Sequence record: PZ049719.1
Source of the DNA: a phage
Direction: 5' to 3' (one strand)
DNA: 11,386 bases
The notes beneath the pieces are model-generated. The model saw only the letters and a list, made by a program, of their open reading frames with translations. It was not told the origin of the DNA and did no database searches. Position numbers and translations under genes: made by a program. Below, one piece after another: positions 1-10,870 of this stretch. How positions within the stretch are numbered: position 1 is the first letter of the stretch; every line of letters begins with the position of its first letter.

Positions 1-1094
1 ATGAAACCACGTGTGGCCGCTTCCACGGTTCGCTGTCCTGCCGGCAGTATCCGGTTGCGTATTTCCTCGACGTCTGCACGTGCGGTACGCCAGTCGCGAA
101 GGGCCTGTTGGATCTCCGCACGAACACGCAGCTCTGCCGCATTACGAAGATCACGCGCCTGTTCCGCCCGCCGTGCGGCCGCCAGAACATTGCCTTGGTT
201 ACGATCAAACAAAGGCAGCGGAACAGAGAGGCCGACGAGGTTGACGCGCTCACGCTCGATTTCGTCGTACTGGCTACCGATACTGACGCTTATGTCCGGG
301 TAGCGCTGGCTTCGCTGAAGCCCCAGCTCGGCTTCACTCAAGGCCACTTGGCGCAGAGCCCTACGCATATCGGCACTCTCACGCACGCGCGCCAATAATG
401 CAGATTCGCTAGGCACCTCTGGCAGGTGTTCGAAACTGCCCAGCAAACTGCCAAACTCCGGTGCGTCGGTCCCGAGCAGGCGCGCTAGCATCTGTCGAGC
501 GTTGTCCCATTCCTGGCGTGCTCGCCGCAGGTCCAGTTGTACGGTCGCCAGTTGCATATCGGCGCGCGTCGCCTCCACTGGCGAAACTTTTCCGGCATCG
601 ACCTGTGCGTCGGCGACCTTAGCAGCCCGTTCGGCCAATGACAGAGAGGCCTCGGCCAGTCGCATGCCCTCTTGGGCACGCAAGGCGGCGAAGAAAGCCT
701 GGATCACATCTGCACGCAACCCCTGGCGTCGAAAGTCAAGGTCGGCATCCACCATCGAGCGATTGGCGTCCGCCACACCGATTCGAGCGCCGCGCTTGCC
801 GCCCAACTCGATCGGCTGAGTGATTGTGATTGAGCGAGTCTGGCGATCGGACTGAGTGTCTTCCACCTCGAATCCTAATTCCGGATTTGGAATAACCCCA
901 GCTTGGCGGCGCAGACCGCTCGCGATACCTATCTCCGACCGCGCGGCGGAGAATTCTGGGTTGCGTTCATACGCAAGGGACACGGCTCGCTCCAGTGTCA
1001 GACCTTCTTGCGCGCCCACCTCGAGCGACATCAGTGCCAGCCCGAGCCCAAGCAGGCCGCTGGCAAGCAGATACAAGCGTTTCTTTTGGTACAT
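1..1094 (-). CDS. czcC: Outer membrane efflux protein (OMF/TolC family), CzcC-like component of a heavy-metal RND efflux system; partial, C-terminus lies beyond the window start
   Basis: Minus-strand ATG at 1094..1092 opens a frame with no stop down to base 1; it is absent from the ORF track, presumably because no stop falls inside the window. Translation begins MYQKKRLYLLASGLLGLGLALMSLEVGAQEGLTLERAVSLAYERNPEF..., a signal peptide without a lipobox Cys followed by OMF-like sequence. Divergent from a CzcRS-like two-component system, as in known czcCBA/czcRS loci. The plus-strand ORFs listed over this region are Arg/Ala/Ser-rich antisense artefacts. The czcC symbol rests on context, not a search. 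Confidence 0.65.
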   Translation of the reverse strand, partial: MYQKKRLYLLASGLLGLGLALMSLEVGAQEGLTLERAVSLAYERNPEFSAARSEIGIASGLRRQAGVIPNPELGFEVEDTQSDRQTRSITITQPIELGGKRGARIGVADANRSMVDADLDFRRQGLRADVIQAFFAALRAQEGMRLAEASLSLAERAAKVADAQVDAGKVSPVEATRADMQLATVQLDLRRARQEWDNARQMLARLLGTDAPEFGSLLGSFEHLPEVPSESALLARVRESADMRRALRQVALSEAELGLQRSQRYPDISVSIGSQYDEIERERVNLVGLSVPLPLFDRNQGNVLAAARRAEQARDLRNAAELRVRAEIQQALRDWRTARADVEEIRNRILPAGQRTVEAATRGF

Positions 1095-1225
1095 ACGCAA
1101 CACTGCCGGGCAGTGCCCCCTTCATGTCGATCGCGTTTCTCCAGCCGCGCTAAACCGGCCAGATAGCTGATGGGTAAACGGCGGTGACTTTATATAAGGG
1201 CGGATATCGACCGGGTGACCACAAC

Positions 1226-1241
1226 ATTACGAATTTGTAAT
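1226..1241. promoter_or_regulatory. Palindromic box ATTACGAATTTGTAAT (ATTAC-N6-GTAAT) in the czcC/porin divergent intergenic region; candidate response-regulator operator
   Basis: Read directly from the sequence; half-sites are reverse complements. It lies 132 bp upstream of the czcC-like start and 159 bp upstream of the porin ATG. The GTAAT half-site resembles boxes reported for CopR/CusR-type OmpR-family regulators, but that comparison is from memory. Confidence 0.4.
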
Positions 1242-1272
1242 CCACGGAATACTTGCGGTTGCGTCGCTACAG

Positions 1273-1288
1273 ATTACGAGATCGTCAT
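1273..1288. promoter_or_regulatory. Second related box ATTACGAGATCGTCAT (ATTAC-N6-GTCAT) upstream of the porin gene
   Basis: Same half-site spacing as the 1226..1241 box, with one mismatch in the right arm; 112 bp upstream of the porin ATG. Confidence 0.3.
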
Positions 1289-1399
1289 TTGCCGCTAATC
1301 CTGCGGTCATTTGTAGGGGGAGATCATGGCCAGGCGCTAAAACAAAAAGGCAAGAGACGTCATTCGAACGCTGACATGCCGTATATCAGGAGCATCATC

Positions 1400-2722
1400 A
1401 TGAGCAAAAAGGCCGCCCTTTCACTGACAGCTCTTTCATTGGCACTGGGCGGCGCCTCGGTCTTTGCCCAGTCGGAAACAGCAGCGGAGGGCTTCATCGA
1501 AGGCAGCACGCTATCGCTGATCAATCGCAACTTTTATTTCAATCGAGATTTCCGCGACGGTGAGAACGCAACCGGCAATGGCTACTCTGAGGAATGGGCT
1601 CAAGGGCTGATGGCCTTCTTCGAGTCCGGATATACCCAAGGCTCGGTGGGGATCGGCGTCGACGCCTTCGCCATGCTCGGCCTCAAGCTCGATTCTGGAT
1701 CAGGACGTTCCGGTGCTGGCGGAACCGTCGATCTTCTCCCCTACAATAGCGCCGGCGATGCCGAGGATGACTTTTCTCGAGTAGGGGGGGCCGTGAAAGC
1801 ACGGTTCTTGGGCACCGAGATCAAGGCAGGCGATGTATTTCCCGCTACTCCTGTCGTGCACTTTGGTGACGCACGGCTGCTGCCGGAGTCTTTCAAGGGT
1901 GTCACCGTTGTGAACAACTCGCTGGACGACCTCACCCTCCAGGGCGGCCGCCTGCACGCGATGAGCCAGCCCAATACCAGCAACACGAACGATGACTTCG
2001 TCACGTTTTATGGCGGCGGCGTCGACTCGCCTTGGCTCGGCTACGCAGGCGGCGACTATAGCGTGAACGAAAACCTCAGTCTTAGCCTGTATACCAGCCG
2101 GCTGAAGGATGCCTGGGATCAACATTATTTCGGTGTCTCGGCCACCTATCCACTTTCCGATGCCGTCGTGCTGCTGGGCAGCTTCAACTACTACAAGGCA
2201 ACCGACGAAGGTCGGAAATTGCTGGGCGAGTTTAACAACAGCATCTGGAGTTCCAGTCTGGGTGTCGCCTTCGGCGCGCACACCGTCACGGCGTCGTATC
2301 AGCGAAACAACGGTAACAACGACTTTGACTACTTGCGCCAAGCGGACTCGATCTACCTGAATAACTCCATCCAGTACAGTGATTTCAACTCACCTAAAGA
2401 GCAGTCCTGGATGCTGCGTTATGACCTGAACATGGCGGGTTACGGCATACCTGGGCTTACGTTCATGACTCGCTACGCCCGCGGCTGGGGCGCCGATTAC
2501 AGCAACGCAAATGAGGTATATATGCGCCAAGACGATAACGGCGCGCCTCTGTCCGGACAGAAGCGCTGGGAACGCGACGTCGAAGCACGCTACGTTGTAC
2601 AGACAGGCTCGTTCAAGGACCTCTCTCTGCGGGTGCGCCAGGCTACAACACGGGCGACTGCTTTCGAGTCCGACCTCAATGAGGTTCGATTCATCGCCGA
2701 GTACCCGCTCTCGATCCTGTGA
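1400..2722 (+). CDS. OprD-family (Occ) outer membrane porin
   Basis: The ORF track extends to a TTG at 1253, but the likely start is the ATG at 1400, preceded by AGGAG at 1388..1392. Product begins MSKKAALSLTALSLALGGASVFA (signal peptide) then EGFIEGSTLSLINRNFYFNRDFRDG..., the characteristic N-terminal signature of OprD/Occ porins. Length about 440 aa fits the family. Confidence 0.85.
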   Translation: MSKKAALSLTALSLALGGASVFAQSETAAEGFIEGSTLSLINRNFYFNRDFRDGENATGNGYSEEWAQGLMAFFESGYTQGSVGIGVDAFAMLGLKLDSGSGRSGAGGTVDLLPYNSAGDAEDDFSRVGGAVKARFLGTEIKAGDVFPATPVVHFGDARLLPESFKGVTVVNNSLDDLTLQGGRLHAMSQPNTSNTNDDFVTFYGGGVDSPWLGYAGGDYSVNENLSLSLYTSRLKDAWDQHYFGVSATYPLSDAVVLLGSFNYYKATDEGRKLLGEFNNSIWSSSLGVAFGAHTVTASYQRNNGNNDFDYLRQADSIYLNNSIQYSDFNSPKEQSWMLRYDLNMAGYGIPGLTFMTRYARGWGADYSNANEVYMRQDDNGAPLSGQKRWERDVEARYVVQTGSFKDLSLRVRQATTRATAFESDLNEVRFIAEYPLSIL

Positions 2723-2781
2723 AGCACTACGAGCAACACCACATCTTCTTTTTGTGCTCCCTTGGTTTGAAGATGTGTTTC

Positions 2782-2807
2782 AGGCGCCCGTAGGGCGCCT
2801 TTTTTTG
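2782..2807 (+). terminator. Rho-independent terminator downstream of the porin gene
   Basis: AGGCGCCC-GTAG-GGGCGCCT forms a perfect 8-bp GC-rich stem with a 4-nt loop, immediately followed by a run of seven T, about 60 bp after the porin stop. Confidence 0.75.
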
Positions 2808-2853
2808 CTTAAGTGCACCTCCTTGCGCTGCGGGCCAACCAAATGACAGGTAG

Positions 2854-2869
2854 ATTACAAATTTGCAAG
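2854..2869. promoter_or_regulatory. Related box ATTACAAATTTGCAAG upstream of the response-regulator gene; candidate autoregulatory operator
   Basis: Left half-site ATTAC and the AAATTTG core match the 1226 box; the right half-site is degenerate (GCAAG versus GTAAT). Sits between the porin terminator and the regulator start. Confidence 0.3.
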
Positions 2870-3038
2870 ACAGCCCCGCAGGACTTTTACCGCGTTAAAG
2901 TGCTTCCCGCTTCCCTAGGCTGATCTTTACGGCCAGCCTTCCATGCTGGGCAAGCCGCGTTAGTCTTGGCCTAGTTGCTACATGAATAATTTTTTGGTTC
3001 CGCTTACCGCGCACCTCATTGCTGAGTCATCTGAAAAC

Positions 3039-3713
3039 ATGCGCATTCTGGTTGTAGAAGACGAGATTAAAGCTGCGGAATACCTGCAGCAGGGTCTCAT
3101 CGAGTGTGGTTACACGGTCGATTGCGTAAGTGATGGGCTCGATGGATTCCACCTGGCACTGCAGAACGACTATGACATCGTGCTGCTAGACGTGAATCTG
3201 CCAACCATGGACGGGTGGGAGGTGCTCGAACTCATCAGGCGACGTAAGCAGACACGCGTCATCATGCTGACGGCCAATGGCCGCTTAGAGCAAAAGGTCC
3301 GCGGCCTGGAGTCGGGCGCCGACGACTATATGGTCAAGCCGTTCCAGTTCCCCGAGCTGCTCGCTCGTATCCGAACATTGTTGCGGCGAGGCGAGGCGGT
3401 CGCACTCCCGAGCAACCTGCGTGTAGCCGACCTCGAACTCGACCCGGGCCGGCATCGGGCCTACAGGAGCGGTCAGCGTATTGATCTCACCAGCAAAGAA
3501 TTTGCGTTACTGCATCTGCTCATGCGCCGGACTGGCGAGGTTCTGACGCGCACCGAAATAACCGCCCTGGTGTGGGACATCAACTTCGACTGCGATACCA
3601 ATGTGGTGGATGTTGCAATCCGTCGCCTACGGATGAAGGTGGACGAACCCTTTGGCGATCGCCTGATACACACCATTCGCGGTGTCGGCTACGTGCTGGA
3701 GGCGCGGCCTTGA
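3039..3713 (+). CDS. czcR: OmpR/PhoB-family two-component response regulator, heavy-metal type (CzcR/CopR/CusR-like)
   Basis: Translation MRILVVEDEIKAAEYLQQGLIECGYTVDCVSDGLDGFHLALQNDYDIVLLDVNLPTMDGWEVLELIRRRK... contains the receiver domain with the phospho-acceptor Asp in LLDVNLP, followed by a winged-helix output domain (...IRGVGYVLEARP). The ORF track begins at ATG 2982; I prefer ATG 3039 because this family typically starts MRILVVEDE, though neither start has a strong Shine-Dalgarno. The czcR symbol is by context (czcC-like OMF, porin, overlapping kinase). Confidence 0.8.
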   Translation: MRILVVEDEIKAAEYLQQGLIECGYTVDCVSDGLDGFHLALQNDYDIVLLDVNLPTMDGWEVLELIRRRKQTRVIMLTANGRLEQKVRGLESGADDYMVKPFQFPELLARIRTLLRRGEAVALPSNLRVADLELDPGRHRAYRSGQRIDLTSKEFALLHLLMRRTGEVLTRTEITALVWDINFDCDTNVVDVAIRRLRMKVDEPFGDRLIHTIRGVGYVLEARP

Positions 3714-5083
3714 AGCCACTCAGCCTCGCATCGCGTCTCGCGCTTCAAATCACATTGACCGGCGCCGTCTTGGTCGCGCTGTTGATTGCACTGAGCTACT
3801 GGGTACTTGTGCGCCAACTGGAACTGCGCGCCCAGGAGGAAGTGACGGCCAAGCTCTCGCAGATCGATCATGGACTCCTAGAAGACACCAAAGCCCGTAT
3901 GGGCCGCTCCTGGCAACACGCACTGAGCGATACGGTACTCGGCCATGACAACCTTTCGATTACCGTCATCGGCGATAGAGCCAAATCCCCCATTTTTAGT
4001 ATCGGCCGGTTCGCCCATGCGCCGCAGCAGATGGATCTTGTGAACAGAGACGGTGAATACCTAGGCTGGACCACGGAAGACGGCGTGCAGATGCTAACCG
4101 GGCGCAAGCAAATACAGGTCCCGGGACTGGCTCCAATGACGCTTTTACTTACGCAAGATCGCAGTGCCGATCAACTGCTAGTGGCTGCATTCCTGCGCTC
4201 GGCCTTAGTGACTGTGCCGATGCTGCTGATGTTGATCGGGTTGGCTGGATGGCTAGTTGCTAACAACGGTTTGCGACCGCTTCGCAAGTTTCGGGCCTTG
4301 GCGACAAAGGTATCGACGCAGGATCTGTCACCCCGAATCCGCAGCGATCAGCTTCCACTAGAGCTTCAGGAATTGGCGCACAGCCTCAACGTAATGCTTC
4401 ATCGACTCGATGACGGAGTTCAGCAACTGTCACAATTCTCGGACGATGTGGCCCATGAGTTGAAGACTCCCCTAAATAACCTGATAGGCAAGGCGCAGGT
4501 GACATTGGTGCGTGAGCGAAGCAAGGAGCAATATAGGGAAGTGCTCGAATCGTCGGTCGAAGAGCTCGAACGCATGGATCGAATCGTGTCAGACATGCTG
4601 TTTCTCGCCCAGGCCAGCCACGCCAGCCCAGCACTGAAACTCGAACAACTATCCCTGGGAAGTGAGGCGAATCGCGTCTGTGAATACCTCGAAGTCCTCG
4701 CCGAAGAAGCCGGAGTCGCAACGACGGTAACGGGCGATGCCATAGTTCTAGGAAATCGGCTTATGGTCCAACGGGCCATTTCCAACCTGCTATCCAACGC
4801 GTTGCGGCATTCGAATACTGGCAGCACGGTCGAAATTAAGATACTTGAGAAGGACATAGACATCGTCTCGCTGGCTGTCACCAATCATGGCGCGACTATC
4901 GAATCGGATCATCTCCCGCACCTGTTCGACCGCTTTTACCGCGTTAACGGCATACAACCTCGTGGGGCAGGATTGGGGCTAGCTATTGTCCGTTCAGTGA
5001 TGAACCTCCACAAAGGCCACGTGGCCGTCGCCAGCAAAGACGGTCGGACCACATTCGAACTCACCTTTCCTCGGCACGCCTGA
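3710..5083 (+). CDS. czcS: Heavy-metal sensor histidine kinase (CzcS/CusS/CopS-like)
   Basis: Two predicted transmembrane segments flank a periplasmic region. H-box FSDDVAHELKTPLNNL with the His codon at 4454..4456; N-box LLSNALRHS; DRFYRV; G-box GAGLGLAIVRSVMNLHKGHV. The only plausible start is TTG 3710..3712, overlapping the regulator stop (TGA 3711..3713) and preceded by GGAGG at 3698..3702; the first in-frame ATG lies far downstream and would delete the first transmembrane segment. Confidence 0.8.
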   Translation: MKPLSLASRLALQITLTGAVLVALLIALSYWVLVRQLELRAQEEVTAKLSQIDHGLLEDTKARMGRSWQHALSDTVLGHDNLSITVIGDRAKSPIFSIGRFAHAPQQMDLVNRDGEYLGWTTEDGVQMLTGRKQIQVPGLAPMTLLLTQDRSADQLLVAAFLRSALVTVPMLLMLIGLAGWLVANNGLRPLRKFRALATKVSTQDLSPRIRSDQLPLELQELAHSLNVMLHRLDDGVQQLSQFSDDVAHELKTPLNNLIGKAQVTLVRERSKEQYREVLESSVEELERMDRIVSDMLFLAQASHASPALKLEQLSLGSEANRVCEYLEVLAEEAGVATTVTGDAIVLGNRLMVQRAISNLLSNALRHSNTGSTVEIKILEKDIDIVSLAVTNHGATIESDHLPHLFDRFYRVNGIQPRGAGLGLAIVRSVMNLHKGHVAVASKDGRTTFELTFPRHA

Positions 5084-5231
5084 TTCAAAGTGATACGGCT
5101 TGGTACCCACTCCCCATCAGACCAACGCCATACATTAATCTCATAATGCATGCATGGCCTAATCGAGCGTGGGATGGTCTACAAAAACGATGAGTTTAAA
5201 ACAGAGCCGAATCGGCAGAAAGCGATGGTTA

Positions 5232-5247
5232 ATTACTGCTTTGTAAT
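5232..5247. promoter_or_regulatory. Box ATTACTGCTTTGTAAT (perfect ATTAC-N6-GTAAT half-sites) upstream of the small secreted-protein gene
   Basis: Same architecture as the 1226..1241 box; 71 bp upstream of the ATG at 5318. A 6-bp-stem hairpin (5266..5281, TAAGGG-TCAA-CCCTTA) lies between the box and the start codon. Confidence 0.4.
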
Positions 5248-5317
5248 GCGAAGAACATCTTCTGGTAAGGGTCAACCCTTTAATCTAAAGGTATCTACTA
5301 ACCCAAGAGGGTAACAA

Positions 5318-5635
5318 ATGAACCGCCCTGCTAAAGTAATCCTGCCGTTCTTTCTGGCCGCTGCTTCTTCGCTCGCTATGGCTGAAGACGGAGGGGAACT
5401 AACAATGCAGCGCCTTGAGAGTGCGTCAGTAACAAATCCCACCCTTAAAATACTTGTTAAAGAAGGTAAAGTGCTGAGCATAGCACCTGCAGGGACGACC
5501 GGTACGACCGGAATGATTCAGAGTTATAGAACTAACGGCAAAGTTCAAACGTACGAGATGAAGGTTAAGACCCCTGATGGGAAGATCCATACGGTTGAGT
5601 TTTTGAGCGCCCCGGTTGGTATAAACAACGGCTAA
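5318..5635 (+). CDS. Small secreted/periplasmic protein of unknown function (105 aa, signal peptide plus beta-rich mature domain)
   Basis: ATG 5318 preceded by AGAGGG. N-terminus MNRPAKVILPFFLAAASSLAMA is a typical Sec signal peptide with an A-x-A cleavage site. The mature part (...GKVQTYEMKVKTPDGKIHTVEFLSAPVG) is Thr/Gly/Lys-rich, looks beta-stranded and has no Cys/His metal motif. It sits in a visibly A+T-rich segment between the kinase and the MerR gene. Family not recognised; PepSY-like or DUF2790-like are only guesses. Confidence 0.6.
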   Translation: MNRPAKVILPFFLAAASSLAMAEDGGELTMQRLESASVTNPTLKILVKEGKVLSIAPAGTTGTTGMIQSYRTNGKVQTYEMKVKTPDGKIHTVEFLSAPVGINNG

Positions 5636-6064
5636 CAGGCCAGTAAGCCCCAACGCCATTAATTTAATGCACGCGTCCTCGCTAATGCCAGCGAGAATTC
5701 CACAAGCCTCAACTTCCCGCCCATCACTGCAATTAGCCCGCAGTGATACGAGTTGTCGTTCGAGTGACTGCAGAGCGGTTATCTGCGACTTGACTTGAGA
5801 AATGTGTTCATCGAGCAAGGCATTAACGGCCGTACAAGGCTGGCGAGGGTCATCCTGGTAGCGTTGGAGTGCGTGAATCTCTGGAAGTGACAGATTCAGG
5901 ATTCGGCAGCTCCGGATGAAGGCTAGCCGCTCGCCATGCTTCTCGGTGTAGACACGATAGCCGTTCGCCTGGCGATCAGGCGGTGGCAGCAAGCCCTGCT
6001 GCTCATAGAAGCGGATCGTCTGTGTATCAATCCCTATTAGCCTTGCTAATTGACCAATGCGCAT
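5426..6064 (-). CDS. MerR-family metal-responsive transcriptional regulator (CadR/ZntR/PbrR-like) with an aberrant 3' extension
   Basis: N-terminus MRIGQLARLIGIDTQTIRFYEQQGLLPPPDRQANGYRVYT is the MerR helix-turn-helix; a dimerisation helix follows, with Cys at residues 77, 112 and 121 in the pattern of the CadR/PbrR/ZntR metal site. The ORF has no stop until 5426, giving 212 aa against roughly 135-150 aa typical of this group. The last 65-80 codons lie antisense to the small-protein gene and look non-native (...FTFFNKYFKGGICY). The coordinates are those of the open frame; the true functional 3' end is uncertain. Confidence 0.7.
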   Translation of the reverse strand: MRIGQLARLIGIDTQTIRFYEQQGLLPPPDRQANGYRVYTEKHGERLAFIRSCRILNLSLPEIHALQRYQDDPRQPCTAVNALLDEHISQVKSQITALQSLERQLVSLRANCSDGREVEACGILAGISEDACIKLMALGLTGLLAVVYTNRGAQKLNRMDLPIRGLNLHLVRLNFAVSSITLNHSGRTGRPCRCYAQHFTFFNKYFKGGICY

Positions 6065-6092
6065 CGTGTGAATCCTTATCGGCTCTGCATTA

Positions 6093-6123
6093 TTGACCTT
6101 GTAGTAGCTATAGGGCTTTTAAT
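6093..6123 (+). promoter_or_regulatory. MerR-type promoter/operator: -35 TTGACC, 19-bp spacer with imperfect dyad, -10 TTTAAT
   Basis: TTGACC (6093..6098), then the 19-bp spacer TTGTAGTAGCTATAGGGCT, then TTTAAT (6118..6123). An overlong 19-20 bp spacer carrying a dyad is the hallmark of MerR-family activated promoters, and the arms ACCTTGTAG / CTATAGGGC resemble CadR/PbrR-type operators as I recall them. It lies in the divergent region between the MerR gene (start 6064) and the transporter gene (start 6157). Confidence 0.7.
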
Positions 6124-6156: not shown

Positions 6157-7047
6157 ATGAGCAAGTCCGATGGTCCCTGCGGCTGCGATGCGACACCAGC
6201 CGCCGATGCCGGTGTGCAAAATCATTCCGATACGACGGGGCAATGGGTCAGTGTTTACGCCGTGCCCAAGATGGATTGTCCATCAGAAGAGCGAATGATC
6301 CGCTTGGCGCTGAATAGTTTGGACGGAATTCGGAAACTGACTTTTGATTTATCGGACCGTCGATTAGACGTCATGCATGACGGGGCCGTTGAGCCCATAA
6401 CTACAAAGCTGGCGGCGTTAGGGCTAGGCGCCACACTTCAGAAAACCGTCACTGCAGACCCGGAGATGATTAAAGCCGTCGAGAATTCGGCGGAATCTAC
6501 ACAGGAGTCCCGTTCCCTACGTTTACTGTTAGGCATCAACGCCTTCATGTTCGTGGTAGAGATGACTGCTGGTCTGGTCGCCAGGTCCGCGGGTCTGATT
6601 GCCGACTCGCTCGACATGTTCGCTGACGCGGCAGTGTACGGCCTAGCCCTTTATGCGGTGGGGCGTAGCGTCAGCCTGCAGGTGCGTGCTGCACACCTTG
6701 CTGGTGTGCTCCAGCTGATTTTGGCTCTCGGCGTGCTCGTAGAGGTATTTAGACGCTTTGTATTCGGCAGCGAGCCCGAGTCGCTGATAATGATGGCCGT
6801 CGCATTCCTGGCATTGCTCGCCAACATGGGTTGTTTGCTGCTGATTTCCAAACACAGGGAAGGCGGGGCCCACATGAAAGCGAGCTGGATATTTTCCGCC
6901 AATGATGTGGTCATCAACGTGGGCGTCATAGTCGCCGGAGCGCTCGTCGCTTGGAGTGGATCCAACTACCCAGACCTGATTATCGGTACTGTTGTGGGAT
7001 TCATCGTTCTCAACGGCGCTCGGCGTATTCTGGCGCTCAAGAGCTGA
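6157..7047 (+). CDS. CDF-like cation efflux membrane protein with N-terminal metal-binding domain; likely target of the adjacent MerR-family regulator
   Basis: ATG 6157 with GGAG 7 nt upstream. The N-terminal ~100 aa are soluble and carry a CGC motif (DGPCGCDATP) and an HMA-like loop VPKMDCPSEERMIRL. Six hydrophobic segments follow, including a CDF-like acidic motif in TM2 (IADSLDMFADAAVYG). The protein ends right after TM6, so it lacks the usual cytoplasmic C-terminal CDF domain. Confidence 0.75.
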   Translation: MSKSDGPCGCDATPAADAGVQNHSDTTGQWVSVYAVPKMDCPSEERMIRLALNSLDGIRKLTFDLSDRRLDVMHDGAVEPITTKLAALGLGATLQKTVTADPEMIKAVENSAESTQESRSLRLLLGINAFMFVVEMTAGLVARSAGLIADSLDMFADAAVYGLALYAVGRSVSLQVRAAHLAGVLQLILALGVLVEVFRRFVFGSEPESLIMMAVAFLALLANMGCLLLISKHREGGAHMKASWIFSANDVVINVGVIVAGALVAWSGSNYPDLIIGTVVGFIVLNGARRILALKS

Positions 7048-7133: not shown

Positions 7134-7766
7134 TTAGCCATTAACGGATGGTGGGTATTGCAGAACGTGGGCTGCAAAGTCCATCAGCGAGACGAAGCCG
7201 CACTGATCGGCTTTTCCTTCACGCTGTAGGTGGTAGCCACGCATGCCTTGCCCAATTGGACCAAGCATATCGGCTTGCAACGTGTCACCGATCATTGCGA
7301 TGGCGGAGGCTTCGCAGCCAAGCTGTTCGATCATCTGACGATAGATTGCAGGCTCAGGCTTTATTGCCCCAACCTCAAAGCTCCATCCGTAAACATCGAA
7401 CGACGGCAGTAACAGTTTGGCTGGAATCGCATATGGGGCTGCGAGATTGGAGCACAACGCGAGCTTCAGGCCGGCGTTCTTTAGCTGATTTAGCGACTCC
7501 AACGCATCATCGAAAAGGCGAACGCTGGCCAGCTCGGTGAAAAGGTCGCTTTCAAGGCTAGCTAACTCAGAGTTGCTCAACTGCGCACCGAAATAATCGG
7601 CAGCTCCAGCCAAACCCAGATTTCGAGTCATCAGAGTCCGTGCGTCATCCGGCCTTGGTGTTCTGCCCTGAAGCCGCAGGTGCTGCATCAGTTGGCGGAA
7701 AGGATGGCGACGCTCATCTATCTGGAGAAGCGTGCCAAACACATCGAAAACTACTGCTTGTATCAT
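7134..7766 (-). CDS. HAD-superfamily hydrolase, haloacid dehalogenase-like subfamily
   Basis: N-terminus MIQAVVFDVFGTLL carries HAD motif I with the nucleophilic Asp but Phe in place of the second Asp, the pattern seen in L-2-haloacid dehalogenase-type members rather than phosphatases. Later motifs (LALCSN, MIGDTLQADM) fit the fold. It lies 55 bp downstream of the SRAP gene on the same strand. Confidence 0.7.
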   Translation of the reverse strand: MIQAVVFDVFGTLLQIDERRHPFRQLMQHLRLQGRTPRPDDARTLMTRNLGLAGAADYFGAQLSNSELASLESDLFTELASVRLFDDALESLNQLKNAGLKLALCSNLAAPYAIPAKLLLPSFDVYGWSFEVGAIKPEPAIYRQMIEQLGCEASAIAMIGDTLQADMLGPIGQGMRGYHLQREGKADQCGFVSLMDFAAHVLQYPPSVNG

Positions 7767-7821
7767 GCCAGTACCACTACCGTTGGAGGCGAACCGACCA
7801 CCCGAAGAGCGATGCCGCCCC

Positions 7822-8478
7822 TCAGTTTTCTGAACTGGATTTCTTCAGAGGTGGCACGAAGAAGATGCGTCTTTGCGGGGGCGCTATCAGGATATCTGTC
7901 GACTTGATGCTTGTGCCTTTTCGACGCCTTGTTTTGCCGTTCTTGTCGACCGCCAGCAGATCACCGGTCGCGACAGCAATGTCGAGTGCCTGCTTTACGC
8001 GAAGCTCGTCAGCCATGGTGTAGTTGGTCAATCCGCTCATCAGACCCAAAAAAGGTTGCCGTTCTACCTCCCATAGGCCCGCTATCCCTAGCAGCCGCCC
8101 ATCGGCACGGGAAATTCGAGTAGGAATAGCCTTGCCTGTTCGCCAGTCGGGCTCATAGATCGCCACCGCAGGGATGATGCAGTGCTGTGCCTTCTTCCAT
8201 GCCTCCCTGAATGACCGCTTGACCGAGGCCGTCTCAGAACGGGCGTTGTAGGTGGACCGTGCCAGCTTTTTGTCGGCCCAGAAGGGCAGGAGCCCAAACA
8301 CTCCCACCTCAGCTTCAAATGGCAACACGGCGTCATCGTACGGGTCGACATTGCGAGGCTTGCGCAGGAACGGCCCGGCATAACCTGGCCACAATTCGAG
8401 CTTCTCCTGAGCGTCGAACTCGACACCAAACTCTTCTTGGAGACGCTCTGGGGTAGGGGCTTCGTAACGACTGCACAT
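7822..8478 (-). CDS. SOS response-associated peptidase (SRAP / YedK / DUF159 family; abasic-site processing protein)
   Basis: Start reassigned to the minus-strand ATG at 8478 (ORF track: 8526) so that the protein begins MCSRYE, placing the family's catalytic Cys at position 2. A GAGAGGTG Shine-Dalgarno lies just upstream. Further family-like motifs are YNARSETA and SFREAWKKAQHCIIPA. Confidence 0.75.
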   Translation of the reverse strand: MCSRYEAPTPERLQEEFGVEFDAQEKLELWPGYAGPFLRKPRNVDPYDDAVLPFEAEVGVFGLLPFWADKKLARSTYNARSETASVKRSFREAWKKAQHCIIPAVAIYEPDWRTGKAIPTRISRADGRLLGIAGLWEVERQPFLGLMSGLTNYTMADELRVKQALDIAVATGDLLAVDKNGKTRRRKGTSIKSTDILIAPPQRRIFFVPPLKKSSSEN

Positions 8479-8628
8479 AACACACCTCTCATTCGTCACT
8501 GTGCTGCTCGGTGTTGCGGCCCGCAACGCCTTGGCGAGTGGGATCTATGATTAGGACAATCTCTCGCGGCACCCCGCTTACTGAGTACATCCTTATACTG
8601 AACGCCTGCCTCCGACGATGGTGAATGC

Positions 8629-9585
8629 ATGTCGATAGATCAGCCCCTCCCTTTCTGGCGCAGAGCAGGAACATTTCTATGGGACTCAGTGCGTGAGGAC
8701 TGTGGGTATCCTGCAACGCTCATGAAGCTGATTAAGAGCCCAGTCAAACTTAATTCGCCCATCCAGGAAACAGCAAAAGGTATTGGCGCAGGAGCGGTTG
8801 TTAGGTGGCACGACTTCGGATCTCTTATTTATGAGCGCGGGATATATCGCGACAAGCTGAATGGATGGACCCACTGCCGCACCTATGGTCGGTATGGCTC
8901 GACTAGCATCGAATGCGCCCCACTATTGCGCGTTGGCAGCGAGATGCAGATCCAACGGTGGCGGTGCGATATCCAACAGGTAGATGGCTTCTCCGCGTCG
9001 AAATCCGAACTCAAGGAGTTCGCCACCATGGATGACATGGTGGTAAGGAACTCACCCGAGATGATCGACGAGATATCTCCGGCGAAGCTGGCGAAGAATC
9101 TGGCCTGGGATGAAATTCGGATCATCAGCCACGTCGATCACGATTATTTCGCCACTTGGGCTTGGGACGGACGCGTCTTTCTGATGAACTCCGGCGGTTC
9201 GCATCACTTCGCAGCTGCCAAGTACATCGCGGCGCGGCTTGAACAGCCGGTTGAGCTGACCGGAACCTATAAGATCTACGGGTTATGTGAGCAGGCTATA
9301 ACAGAACTCAGGCGTGAATACGGCATGTTCGTGTTGTCGCATGAGCCTGATGCTTGGTTGGGGTTCAACGAAGCTATGGCTCGCTTCAAGGCAACGTATT
9401 ATTGGAAGACATTGCCCCGCCCGCACAACCACCAGCGTTGCGCAATTTTTTTACCGCTAAAGGAGAAGCGCTCTGCCATGGTTGCGAGGATTCTCAAGGA
9501 AAACAATTTCCAGGACCTAGGCGCTTACTTGGCTGGCCTAGCTGCCCAGTCACAAGCGGTCATCAACAAAGTCAATCCGCCATAA
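8629..9585 (+). CDS. Hypothetical protein, 318 aa, no family assignable by inspection
   Basis: Long open frame with non-repetitive composition, divergent from the SRAP gene and convergent with the relaxase-like ORF. Contains a His/Asp-rich stretch (IISHVDHDYFATWAWDGRVFLMNSGGSHHF) that could be a metal or catalytic site. The start is uncertain: ATG 8629 has a weak GGTGA upstream, and an alternative ATG lies at 8722. Located in the more A+T-rich islet. Confidence 0.55.
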   Translation: MSIDQPLPFWRRAGTFLWDSVREDCGYPATLMKLIKSPVKLNSPIQETAKGIGAGAVVRWHDFGSLIYERGIYRDKLNGWTHCRTYGRYGSTSIECAPLLRVGSEMQIQRWRCDIQQVDGFSASKSELKEFATMDDMVVRNSPEMIDEISPAKLAKNLAWDEIRIISHVDHDYFATWAWDGRVFLMNSGGSHHFAAAKYIAARLEQPVELTGTYKIYGLCEQAITELRREYGMFVLSHEPDAWLGFNEAMARFKATYYWKTLPRPHNHQRCAIFLPLKEKRSAMVARILKENNFQDLGAYLAGLAAQSQAVINKVNPP

Positions 9586-9625
9586 TTAGGGTAGTCCAGA
9601 CCTCAGCGCAACTATCCAATGATAG

Positions 9626-10870
9626 CTAGTGATCATCCTGACTCTCACAAAGTTTGAGATTGGGATTATCCAGCATCTCAGTTGTGAATACGTCGCCGGG
9701 TTTTTTGAGCATATAACCCTTCAGTGTTTTCGTTTTACGAGGTCCAAAGACTTCGCACGTCCAGATGTTATGTCCGTTGCTCTTCTTAACGTGAAGCTTC
9801 AGCTTTTCGAACGACTTTTGGACCTGCAGCCATGGCTGTCCTTCGCCAGCCCTCGCTGAGAAGAGGGTCGGATGCTCTTGGGCATACCTTCTGAATATTT
9901 CAGGAGTCACCAGAAAAGCCGTGCCGTTGACGGTGTGAACCTTGGCTTTTGCATCATTGATAATGATCTTGTGGGTTCCTACACCCACTTTTAGCCAGTG
10001 CATGAAAAGGTGACCTAGCGTGTCGCCGATCGGGCCAGCGATGGTAGCGGTCGCGGCAGTGTCTGACTGAGCTTCGACCTCGGACGCCGCCGGCATCGCC
10101 GGGGCGGGTACCGAATTGGTCGGCGCGTCACGCATATCCATCAGATCCAGAAGGTAGTCCGTATCATCTACCTCATCGGGTTGCGGTCCATGGTCACTTG
10201 CGGGTTCGTCCCCTTGAGGCTCTGCCGCAACGGCATCGCCGCCCCCGGCAGTAAGGCTGGGCTTTTCCTCCTGCGCTTCGGAAGCTGCGGCAGGGGCTGC
10301 TTCTTCGTTGAGGACTTGCACCGAGCCGCCAAAAGGCTCCGGGCGGTCTTCGCCAGCTGCCCATATGAGTGAAGGTGAAACTCTCAAGAACGTGAATGCG
10401 TTCTTCCATCCCGTAGGGCTCAGGATTTCGGCATCCCAAATAGCTTTGCCAGCAGGATTCGCAACAATCAGGCCGTTATCCTGAAAGACATTGAAGAGAG
10501 TGGAGTTGCGGTCCGGAACACCCTCAATCCCTTGGCTGAGGAGGTGAGCACGCAGCCGATCCGAAACGGTCTTGCTGACCAGCCAGATCGCATCGGCCGT
10601 GATCCAGCCATCGGAAGCGTCTGGCTGATTCAACTTGAGCTCGTTCTTCACCAGGTAGCGCAGCCCATCGAGGAGCTGACGCTGAAGAGTGTTACGCGGT
10701 GCTGCCACAGCTCTGTCTGGATTGCCGCCAAGCTCATGGGCGACCGACGCCTGGTCAGACCTTACAACGATGTCCCCAAGAACCCCAGCGTGCTCAAACT
10801 GGCCAGCCAGTACGTACAGCAAAGCACCCCAGAGCTCTGGATTGGATGAGATCCATCCGATACCATTCAA
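9626..10870 (-). CDS. Hypothetical protein with a long acidic Ala/Pro-rich linker; possibly a 5'-truncated remnant of an ICE-type relaxase (TraI_2_C-like C-terminal region)
   Basis: The frame opens with TTG directly after an in-frame stop at 10871..10873, and the first internal ATG is about 245 codons in, so an intact N-terminus is doubtful. The upstream sequence in the same frame translates to non-protein-like text. A low-complexity segment (about 10000..10300) separates an N-terminal region from a basic C-terminal domain (...WTCEVFGPRKTKTLKGYMLKKPGDVF...). The resemblance to conjugative relaxase C-termini is a recollection, not a search result. Confidence 0.4.
   Translation of the reverse strand: MNGIGWISSNPELWGALLYVLAGQFEHAGVLGDIVVRSDQASVAHELGGNPDRAVAAPRNTLQRQLLDGLRYLVKNELKLNQPDASDGWITADAIWLVSKTVSDRLRAHLLSQGIEGVPDRNSTLFNVFQDNGLIVANPAGKAIWDAEILSPTGWKNAFTFLRVSPSLIWAAGEDRPEPFGGSVQVLNEEAAPAAASEAQEEKPSLTAGGGDAVAAEPQGDEPASDHGPQPDEVDDTDYLLDLMDMRDAPTNSVPAPAMPAASEVEAQSDTAATATIAGPIGDTLGHLFMHWLKVGVGTHKIIINDAKAKVHTVNGTAFLVTPEIFRRYAQEHPTLFSARAGEGQPWLQVQKSFEKLKLHVKKSNGHNIWTCEVFGPRKTKTLKGYMLKKPGDVFTTEMLDNPNLKLCESQDDH

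Follow-up and report, generated by a model that had tools for sequence, protein, structure and literature searches.

Probable CzcR-type operators forming oriented arrays in a transferred czc–porin cassette, with a conserved RNA element downstream of the porin

The cassette and its palindromic boxes

A stretch of phage DNA of 11,386 nucleotides (record PZ049719.1; the whole stretch is referred to as the window) carries a heavy-metal resistance cassette, consisting of a czcC-like gene, a divergently oriented porin gene, a CzcR/CzcS-like two-component system and a gene for a PtrA-like secreted protein. Palindromic boxes lie upstream of these units. From their sequence they would be operators of the CzcR-type regulator encoded in the cassette itself, a reading to which we assign a probability of roughly 0.85; paralogous regulators of the CopR type probably read the boxes too.

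The czcC-like outer-membrane factor (1–1094, minus strand; 5′ part, running off the left end, with the start codon at 1094) matched Pfam OEP (E 4e-43) and an IhpA/TolC-type NCBIfam model. The porin (1400–2722, plus strand, 440 aa) belongs to the OccD subgroup of the OprD family (PF03573, E 5.6e-150), and its best solved relatives are OpdC and OprD. It is followed on the same strand by a CzcR-like heavy-metal response regulator of the OmpR/PhoB family (3039–3713, 224 aa; TIGR01387, 339.8 bits against a cut-off of 279), whose exact sequence is present on 332 public contigs, and by a CzcS-like heavy-metal sensor kinase (3710–5083, 457 aa; TIGR01386, 436.7 bits). The PtrA-like protein (5318–5635, plus strand, 105 aa) matched the PtrA N-terminal domain (NF041599, 47.1 bits against a cut-off of 31). 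It has a hydrophobic N-terminus like a signal peptide, ending AMA-ED, and its C-terminal 60 residues match no family.

The periplasmic part of the kinase (residues 30–167) had a single match in the PDB, the sensor domain of P. aeruginosa CzcS (5GPO, E 1.9e-7); similarity to the CusS sensor could not be detected. The zinc ligands of CzcS, His55 and Asp60 (PMC5540610), correspond to His54 and Asp59 of the kinase, and Glu58 aligns to Asp59. Since CzcS is the only structural match and the zinc ligands are kept, the two-component system is CzcRS-like and not CusRS-like.

Box 1 (ATTACGAATTTGTAAT, 1226–1241), read directly from the sequence, is a perfect inverted repeat, ATTAC-GAATTT-GTAAT, in the divergent region between czcC and the porin gene, 132–147 bp upstream of the czcC-like ATG (1094, minus strand). 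Box 2 (ATTACGAGATCGTCAT, 1273–1288) lies 112–127 bp upstream of the porin ATG (1400), and box 3 (ATTACAAATTTGCAAG, 2854–2869) just past the porin terminator, 170–185 bp upstream of the regulator ATG (3039). Box 4 (ATTACTGCTTTGTAAT, 5232–5247), found by pattern search 71–86 bp upstream of the PtrA-like open reading frame (ORF), has perfect arms. Mismatches to the arms of ATTAC-N6-GTAAT number zero in boxes 1 and 4, one in box 2 and two in box 3, and the spacers (GAATTT, GAGATC, AAATTT and TGCTTT in boxes 1–4) are for the most part A/T-rich. A preliminary description of this DNA had reported three sites, at 1226, 1273 and 2854, upstream of the czcC-like gene, the OprD-family porin and the regulator/kinase operon. 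Sequence and gene calls agree with it on all of these, and the fourth, perfect site at 5232–5247 had been missed.

With up to two mismatches to ATTAC-N6-GTAAT, nine matches were found in the window against 2.3 expected (0 of 200 shuffles reached nine), and the narrower consensus put forward in the preliminary description gave six against 0.47 expected. As biological background, 259 kb of DNA around paralogous porins in other Pseudomonas genomes was used. At one mismatch or fewer the 11.4-kb window holds three matches, compared with one in the entire background (0.04 per 11.4 kb), so that the motif is clearly more frequent than in the background. At the level of box 3 this no longer holds: with two mismatches the background reaches 1.4 per 11.4 kb, the pattern match alone is therefore not significant for that box, and its case rests on conservation and published precedent. 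A further match inside czcC (878–893, ATTCCGGATTTGGAAT) was regarded as chance, scoring 13.9 bits with a 16-bp matrix and −3 with the 38-bp matrix described below, within the range of shuffles. The four boxes themselves stand in the promoter regions of czcC, the czc-linked porin, czcRS and the ptrA-like gene, with a regulator of the TIGR01387 family adjoining.

Oriented arrays of four half-sites

Past the porin boxes of distant orthologues two further pentamers recur at 11-bp intervals. A 38-bp weight matrix was trained on 14 porin promoters of such orthologues (at most 72% identity), with no Stutzerimonas cassette sequence included. Its top three scores in the window were at 1241 (minus strand), 1273 (plus strand) and 5232 (plus strand). 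Array 1 (1204–1241, minus strand, towards czcC) reads ATTAC-N6-GTAAT-N6-GTCAC-N6-GATAT and scored 32.3 bits; array 2, which is box 2 with its extension (1273–1310, plus strand, towards the porin), reads ATTAC-N6-GTCAT-N6-CTAAT-N6-GTCAT (32.1 bits); and array 4, box 4 with its extension (5232–5269, plus strand, towards the PtrA-like gene), reads ATTAC-N6-GTAAT-N6-AACAT-N6-GTAAG (22.5 bits). In 200 shuffles of the window the maximum per shuffle averaged 3.8 bits and never exceeded 18.7 bits, and the 259 kb of paralogue loci gave no match of 14 bits or more. Since two of the three top hits are promoters of non-porin genes, they validate the matrix independently.

The extension alone (positions 17–38) was significant against the 259-kb background at box 1 on the minus strand (p about 1.7e-5), at box 2 on the plus strand (p below 2e-6; it outscored all 516,760 background positions) and at box 4 on the plus strand (p about 1.2e-4). 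In the opposite orientation it was not significant at any of these three boxes, the signal being confined to the direction of the downstream gene. As judged from sequence, the 16-bp palindrome is only part of the functional unit at boxes 1, 2 and 4, which is an oriented array of four half-sites with 11-bp spacing.

Among 88 distinct arrays (at least 20 bits), offsets 49–54, which lie outside the matrix, read T, A (95%), n, n, A (64%), T (85%), i.e. a −10-like hexamer begins exactly 11 nt past the fourth half-site. The putative hexamers at offset 49 in the window are TAAAGT for the czcC-like operon (1187–1192, minus strand), GATCAT for the porin (1322–1327, plus strand) and TAATCT for the PtrA-like gene (5281–5286, plus strand). 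The first is conserved in an alignment of the divergent region (A1, see below), and TAATCT or TAATAT is kept in alignment A3; the porin column reads TATAAT in the most diverged locus (L031) and NANNAT in the distant orthologues. No −35 hexamer was found at the arrays of boxes 1, 2 and 4.

The array ends 11 nt before the −10 element and would take the place of a −35 element, and by analogy these arrays, spanning about −61 to −24, would have the geometry of PhoB-type activator sites. At the pho-box promoters of E. coli, PhoB occupies tandem half-sites with 11-bp periodicity, which stand in for the −35 element and stop about 10 bp short of the −10. The pho-box half-site TGTCAT also resembles TGT[A/C]AT in the window arrays. 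Pho boxes, however, are direct repeats only, whereas the distal half-site of the window arrays is inverted to give a palindromic core, so that the likeness is one of mechanism and not of membership. An oriented array at a fixed distance from the −10 explains how sites in a divergent region can act in one direction.

Conservation in related loci

A porin scan with one genome per species yielded 77 loci, 57 of which carry orthologues of the porin (at least 61% identity); 24 loci with porin paralogues (at most 47% identity) served as controls. L001, from Stutzerimonas stutzeri 24a75, is nearly identical to the window, and the same cassette was found at 96–100% protein identity in S. frequens, Halopseudomonas aestusnigri and Ectopseudomonas oleovorans. 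Most Stutzerimonas chromosomes have the same porin–czcRS block with a czcC that is only 40% identical and follows a His-rich czcI-like ORF. Porin orthologues at 61–72% identity occur at about 25 more loci in other Pseudomonas lineages, mostly without an adjoining two-component system.

Both forms of the cassette, with and without the czcI-like ORF, retain box 1 and its extension. In nine aligned Stutzerimonas and Halopseudomonas loci (A1) the arms of boxes 1 and 2 are invariant, as is the extension of box 2. The 30 bp separating the two boxes vary in sequence and length, with a box-to-box distance of 43–49 bp. Because this intervening DNA and the distance vary and the arms do not, boxes 1 and 2 are regarded as two independent sites serving divergent promoters. 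Most of the orthologues at 61–72% identity have a box (ATTAC/CTGAC/ATGAC-N6-GTAAT/GTCAT) within about 120–170 bp upstream of the porin, in most of the distant orthologues as a single box at −118 to −156, matching box 2, and such a box was found upstream of none of the 24 paralogues. At box 4, loci L002 and L019 keep the arms, the third and fourth half-sites and the −10, and the spacer changes (TGCTTT, GCCTTT, AACTTT). Conservation in orthologous promoters combined with rarity elsewhere, as the preliminary description had required of a true operator, thus holds for boxes 1, 2 and 4 and in part for box 3.

In the common Stutzerimonas form the czcI-like ORF, which encodes a His-rich secreted protein, lies between box 1 and czcC (L008 5220–5601, minus strand, and equivalents). 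It is absent from the cassette of the window.

Relation to known regulators

In P. putida KT2440, DNase I footprints of CzcR3 at czcC1 (−120 to −144) and czcC2 define the operator aTTAC-N6-GTAAT with an A/T-rich spacer (Liu et al. 2021, PMC8469834). The consensus is identical to that of the window, box 1 lies at −132 to −147 compared with −120 to −144 for the czcC1 site, and the gene order by locus tags (czcA1-B1-C1, porin PP_0046, czcR3) is the same. The suggestion that OmpR-family heavy-metal regulators bind palindromes of this shape is supported by these footprints on a box of the same form. KT2440 nevertheless represents a different genus-level lineage from the Stutzerimonas cassette, and that paper covers neither the porin nor a ptrA site. 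The porin PP_0046, listed between czcC1 and czcR3, was induced 30–97-fold by zinc, as the most zinc-sensitive induced gene among the listed envelope genes (PMC6066579).

The same inverted-repeat feature has been reported for the CzcR site of P. stutzeri, as cited in PMC8469834. According to a review citing Garber et al. 2018 (PMC10393844), CzcR of P. stutzeri RCH2 activates an OprD porin, CzcR, CopR1 and CopR2 have nearly the same sites and targets in common, and the reason for CzcR control of an OprD-type porin is still called a mystery. RCH2 belongs to the same species group as the window; its regulons, as described there, were obtained by DNA affinity purification sequencing (DAP-seq), and no site-by-site identity with the window is claimed. 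By the same account RCH2 has czcI, as do the L008-type loci, whereas the window has the other czcC allele (40% identity), no czcI and a PtrA-like gene added after the kinase.

In P. aeruginosa the reported motifs are GAAAC-N6-GTAAT for CzcR and CTGACA-N5-GTAAT for CopR, and the CusR box of P. paraeruginosa is the palindrome ATTCATnnATGTAAT. These boxes share with the window the regulator family, the right half-site GTAAT and the 11-bp phasing, and differ in the left half-site, which is ATTAC in the window. Chromatin immunoprecipitation (ChIP) peaks of P. aeruginosa CzcR include oprD, opdT and ptrA-copR, and ptrA is induced via both CopRS and CzcRS. The targets overlap with those of the window (czcCBA, ptrA and OprD-family porins including opdT). 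In P. aeruginosa, however, CzcR represses oprD, whereas the porin family of the window appears to be activated.

Activation of an OprD porin in RCH2 as reported in the review, the zinc induction of PP_0046 and a box at a conserved position across many Pseudomonas lineages that is missing from the paralogues bear out the earlier proposal that the porin is metal-regulated. Assigning all three units to one regulator was right as to the type of operator, CzcR, but too simple, as the overlap of CzcR, CopR1 and CopR2 reported for P. stutzeri indicates. Physical binding and metal induction at the window boxes are here taken over from the literature on relatives. Since operator and porin control have in substance been published for close relatives, the preliminary description is a correct re-discovery.

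Proposed regulation and alternative readings

In the proposed model, the CzcS-like kinase would sense periplasmic zinc or cadmium, and the phosphorylated regulator would bind the inverted repeat ATTAC-N6-GTAAT. At boxes 1, 2 and 4 this repeat would form the distal end of the 38-bp array (ATTAC, GTAAT, [C/G]TCA[C/T], G[T/A]TA[T/G]), which, placed 11 nt before the −10, would stand in for the −35 element as PhoB does at pho boxes. The bound regulator would bring in RNA polymerase and switch on three units at once: czcCBA efflux leftwards from box 1, the porin with the RNA of its 3′ untranslated region (3′UTR) rightwards from box 2, and the PtrA-like periplasmic protein from box 4. We infer that half-sites 3 and 4 are occupied, that transcription starts near 1180 (minus strand), 1334 and 5293, and that each promoter is activated and not repressed.

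Several observations weigh against this reading. At the boxes, a scan for consensus promoters picked up no standard sigma-70 promoter and so gave no positive support, although this is expected for activator-dependent promoters. The CzcR3 footprints at the czcC promoters of KT2440 cover about 25 bp and not 38 bp (PMC8469834), so the regulator alone may leave half-sites 3 and 4 unoccupied; sequence conservation in the window reaches 38 bp. The remaining points concern box 3, with its two arm mismatches, a better score on the opposite strand and no extension. Box 3 is also specifically diverged in L047, where the intergenic region is otherwise 93% identical, and on its own promoter in KT2440 CzcR3 protects a 36-bp region with three motifs without measurable regulatory effect (PMC8469834).

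Reading of the boxes chiefly by the paralogous copper regulators of the CopR/CusR type, with the porin and the PtrA-like gene under primary copper control and the local two-component system in a minor role, is unlikely, though it has substantial points in its favour. Porin orthologues without an adjoining two-component system bear CopR-type boxes such as CTGACAGATTTGTCAT, which fits CTGACA-N5-GTAAT; ptrA is a core CopR target; OpdT is up 18–25-fold with copper in PAO1; and the targets of P. stutzeri CzcR, CopR1 and CopR2 are, in the review cited above, almost the same. Yet the local kinase is of the CzcS type, with both zinc ligands and no CusS sensor similarity, the window boxes are exactly of the form footprinted for CzcR3, and the cassette keeps its own regulator beside czcCBA and moves with it between genera. 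Copper control and control by the local regulator are also mutually compatible, and cross-regulation is documented. That box 2 is instead a repressor site, by which metal excess shuts the porin down, draws on the P. aeruginosa precedent, where CzcR binds and represses the oprD promoter, and on porins being a plausible route of metal entry. It is improbable given that the oriented array, the 11-nt spacing to the −10 and the missing −35 are the same as at the czcC and ptrA-like promoters and correspond to an activator geometry, that CzcR activates the OprD porin in RCH2 (as the review reports) and that the KT2440 porin in the same position is zinc-induced. Least probable by far is that the matches arose by chance from A/T-rich promoter sequence, UP elements for example, read by no specific factor. 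The sites are indeed A/T-rich and intergenic, and the two-mismatch pattern is common (1.4 per 11.4 kb), but enrichment, conservation across lineages with varying spacers, oriented extensions, the fixed spacing to the −10 and identity with footprinted operators already refute this for boxes 1, 2 and 4.

Box 3 upstream of czcRS

Together with a phased ATGAC (2843–2847), box 3 extends over 2843–2869 and is best matched on the minus strand, as three half-sites CTTGC-N6-GTAAT-N6-GTCAT. In this reading (CTTGCAAATTTGTAAT) it scored 20.6 bits with the 16-bp matrix and 13.6 bits with the 38-bp matrix (2869, minus strand, pointing away from czcR). The extension was not significant in either orientation, and no −10 element could be placed at the standard offset in either register. 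The three pentamers are ATGAC, ATTAC and GCAAG, compared with ATAAC, ATTAC and GTTAT at the czcR3 promoter of KT2440. A predicted terminator overlapping box 3 (2864–2880, minus strand) is a weak 7-pair stem and was treated as chance.

It is nearly an even question, with the balance slightly against it, whether box 3 is vestigial and czcRS is driven by a proximal promoter, possibly under CadR and without autoregulation. The right arm is degenerate and variable among relatives (GCAAG, GAAAG, GTAAG, GAAGG, GCTGG), an oriented extension is missing, and L047 has a diverged copy. Binding of KT2440 CzcR3 to its own promoter has no effect, and CadR directly controls czcRS3 there (PMC8469834). A TTGACC/TTGGCC element also lies about 70 bp upstream of the regulator ATG, with a CadR-like dyad in several relatives. 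On the other hand, box 3 is conserved above the surrounding intergenic DNA in eight of ten comparisons (e.g. 82% against 50% in L006), its minus-strand sequence equals the genuine porin boxes of L032 and L035 (CTTGCAAAATTGTAAT), and a conserved TAAAGT lies 26 nt downstream. Judged by these sequence features, box 3 probably binds the regulator, and any regulatory effect is uncertain. The earlier proposal of a czcR operator here thus stands as far as binding is probable; box 3 is the weakest of the sites, and its KT2440 counterpart had no measurable effect.

The proximal promoter-like element of czcR (2964–2990) reads TTGGCC in the window. In the same columns of alignment A2, loci L002, L050, L015 and L031 have TTGACC, a 19-bp spacer and TATTTT with an imperfect CadR-like dyad, CCTTATAG-TTA-CTACATGG. 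Three base pairs of this are missing from the window form, and the arrangement recalls the CadR control of czcRS3 in KT2440. Transcription of czcR would begin either at about 2908 or downstream of 2969.

A conserved RNA element downstream of the porin

Right after the porin stop codon, the 3′UTR contains a predicted RNA element (2739–2806, plus strand) made up of a hairpin, a U-rich linker and a GC-rich intrinsic terminator. The hairpin has the stem CACAUCUUC/GAAGAUGUG and a 20-nt loop ending GCUCCCUUGG, and the fold z-score is −3.6. The element is nearly invariant where the remaining intergenic region diverges. The same architecture with different stems was found at other porin-orthologue loci (L040 7376–7452, L023 2121–2190, L034 7518–7590, L032 7734–7810 and others), and the loop motif GCUCC[U/C]UUGG is invariant.

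A covariance model built from nine sequences (R1) scored the window at 44.2 bits (E 8e-11). In 56 of 78 sources, namely the window plus 55 loci, it gave one hit each; every one of these is a porin-orthologue locus with the hit on the porin strand, and 20 paralogue loci gave none. In the resulting alignment 91.7% of cells pair and 10 of 10 stem pairs change on both sides. As this alignment is itself fitted to the model, the excess of double-change cells (90, against 25.8 ± 4.1 in shuffles, none of 500 reaching 90) and the covariation score (0.73, against 0.08–0.18 in slid controls) have to be read with that in mind. Stem arms taken from 70-nt segments paired in 100% of cases within a sequence, compared with 52% across sequences. 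RNAalifold found no structure in the MAFFT alignment A4, because the stems are out of register there; single-sequence folds and the covariance-model alignment resolved them. No Rfam family reached its gathering threshold in the window or in eight related loci, the best match being MicA at 26.6 and 19.2 bits against a threshold of 41.

The element occurs in three contexts. It can be a stand-alone unit of about 85–120 nt with its own four-half-site array past the porin stop and no ORF (L040, L057, L023, L034, L067, L022-type), the 3′UTR of an array-bearing PtrA-like ORF of 62–73 aa (L030, L032, L035, L039, L018) or, as in the window, the 3′UTR of the porin. In every case it accompanies or follows a member of this porin family and stands under a CzcR/CopR-type array. 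In distant loci, the small ORFs past the porin scored 18.6–28 bits, below the PtrA cut-off of 31, and are termed PtrA-like only. Secreted proteins of about 109–131 aa are also encoded behind CzcR/CopR-type arrays beside the porin (L023 2202–2531, L037 5466–5795, L033 7687–8082 on the minus strand). They share the C-terminal motif Y-R-Y-[DG]-M-x-L-D-[IV]-A-K ... C and match no NCBIfam model.

The loop GCUCC is complementary to the conserved ribosome-binding site GGAGC of the porin, a pairing too short for a target of the RNA to be named. Longer pairing with the porin leader (CCAA...AGGAGC) was found in several lineages, not in the window type, and was discarded as a general feature; GCUCC:GGAGC alone is general.

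In P. aeruginosa, a zinc-regulated, Hfq-dependent RNA acting on oprD had been postulated and was not identified as of 2016 (PMC5083921). We tentatively propose, with the odds still against it, that the element is an Hfq-type small RNA, so far undescribed, that belongs to the Zn/Cu (CzcR/CopR) regulon of Pseudomonas, with the loop GCUCC[U/C]UUGG as a Shine–Dalgarno-complementary seed; its novelty is uncertain. It could be the metal-regulated riboregulator postulated for Hfq-dependent repression of OprD in P. aeruginosa, or a feedback brake on the porin. In a related reading, the porin and the PtrA-like protein may form a co-regulated module of outer-membrane permeability.

Flanking genes and origin of the cassette

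Beyond the PtrA-like gene, the window encodes a MerR regulator of the CadR/PbrR type (6064–5426, minus strand) and an HMA-CDF exporter (6157–7047, plus strand), both assigned by family match. The cadR ORF (212 aa) overlaps the convergent PtrA-like ORF by 210 bp (5426–5635). CadR homology stops near residue 130–144, the same point as in relatives that lack the ptrA-like gene, and what follows does not look like coding sequence. From the sequence, acquisition of the ptrA-like gene seems to have put new sequence in place of the former 3′ end of cadR. The HMA-CDF gene is separated from cadR by a promoter of the MerR-family kind (6093–6123), in which TTGACC and TTTAAT stand 19 bp apart. It contains the dyad CCTTGTAG-TAG-CTATAGGG and is likely to be the CadR operator; the terminator scan flagged this dyad as a hairpin. 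The region 7134–10870 encodes a HAD hydrolase, an SRAP (SOS-response-associated peptidase) protein, a DUF6685 protein and an unannotated ORF of 414 aa, and looks like accessory or island DNA.

Comparison of L001, L005, L050, L019 and L002 with the window showed the cassette to be mosaic and to have moved between genera. In S. frequens (L005), for example, czcC and czcRS-ptrA-cadR-CDF are 99–100% identical to the window, and the porin is only 92% identical. A plasmid search with positions 1–6100 returned only a cadR fragment and a 49-bp match.

Implications

The re-discovery described here means that a real operator is recoverable from raw sequence, and it adds no new biology on czc regulation. 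The refinement is that the regulon of a widely transferred cassette also takes in a PtrA-like gene, and that the 38-bp array allows sharper searches than the 16-bp palindrome does. The site at the regulator gene itself departs from the others, which agrees with the absence of autoregulation in P. putida.

The RNA element, tied to the porin and to the arrays, is a testable lead on why CzcR controls a porin of the OprD type. It is also relevant to the Hfq-dependent carbapenem resistance that metals induce in P. aeruginosa.

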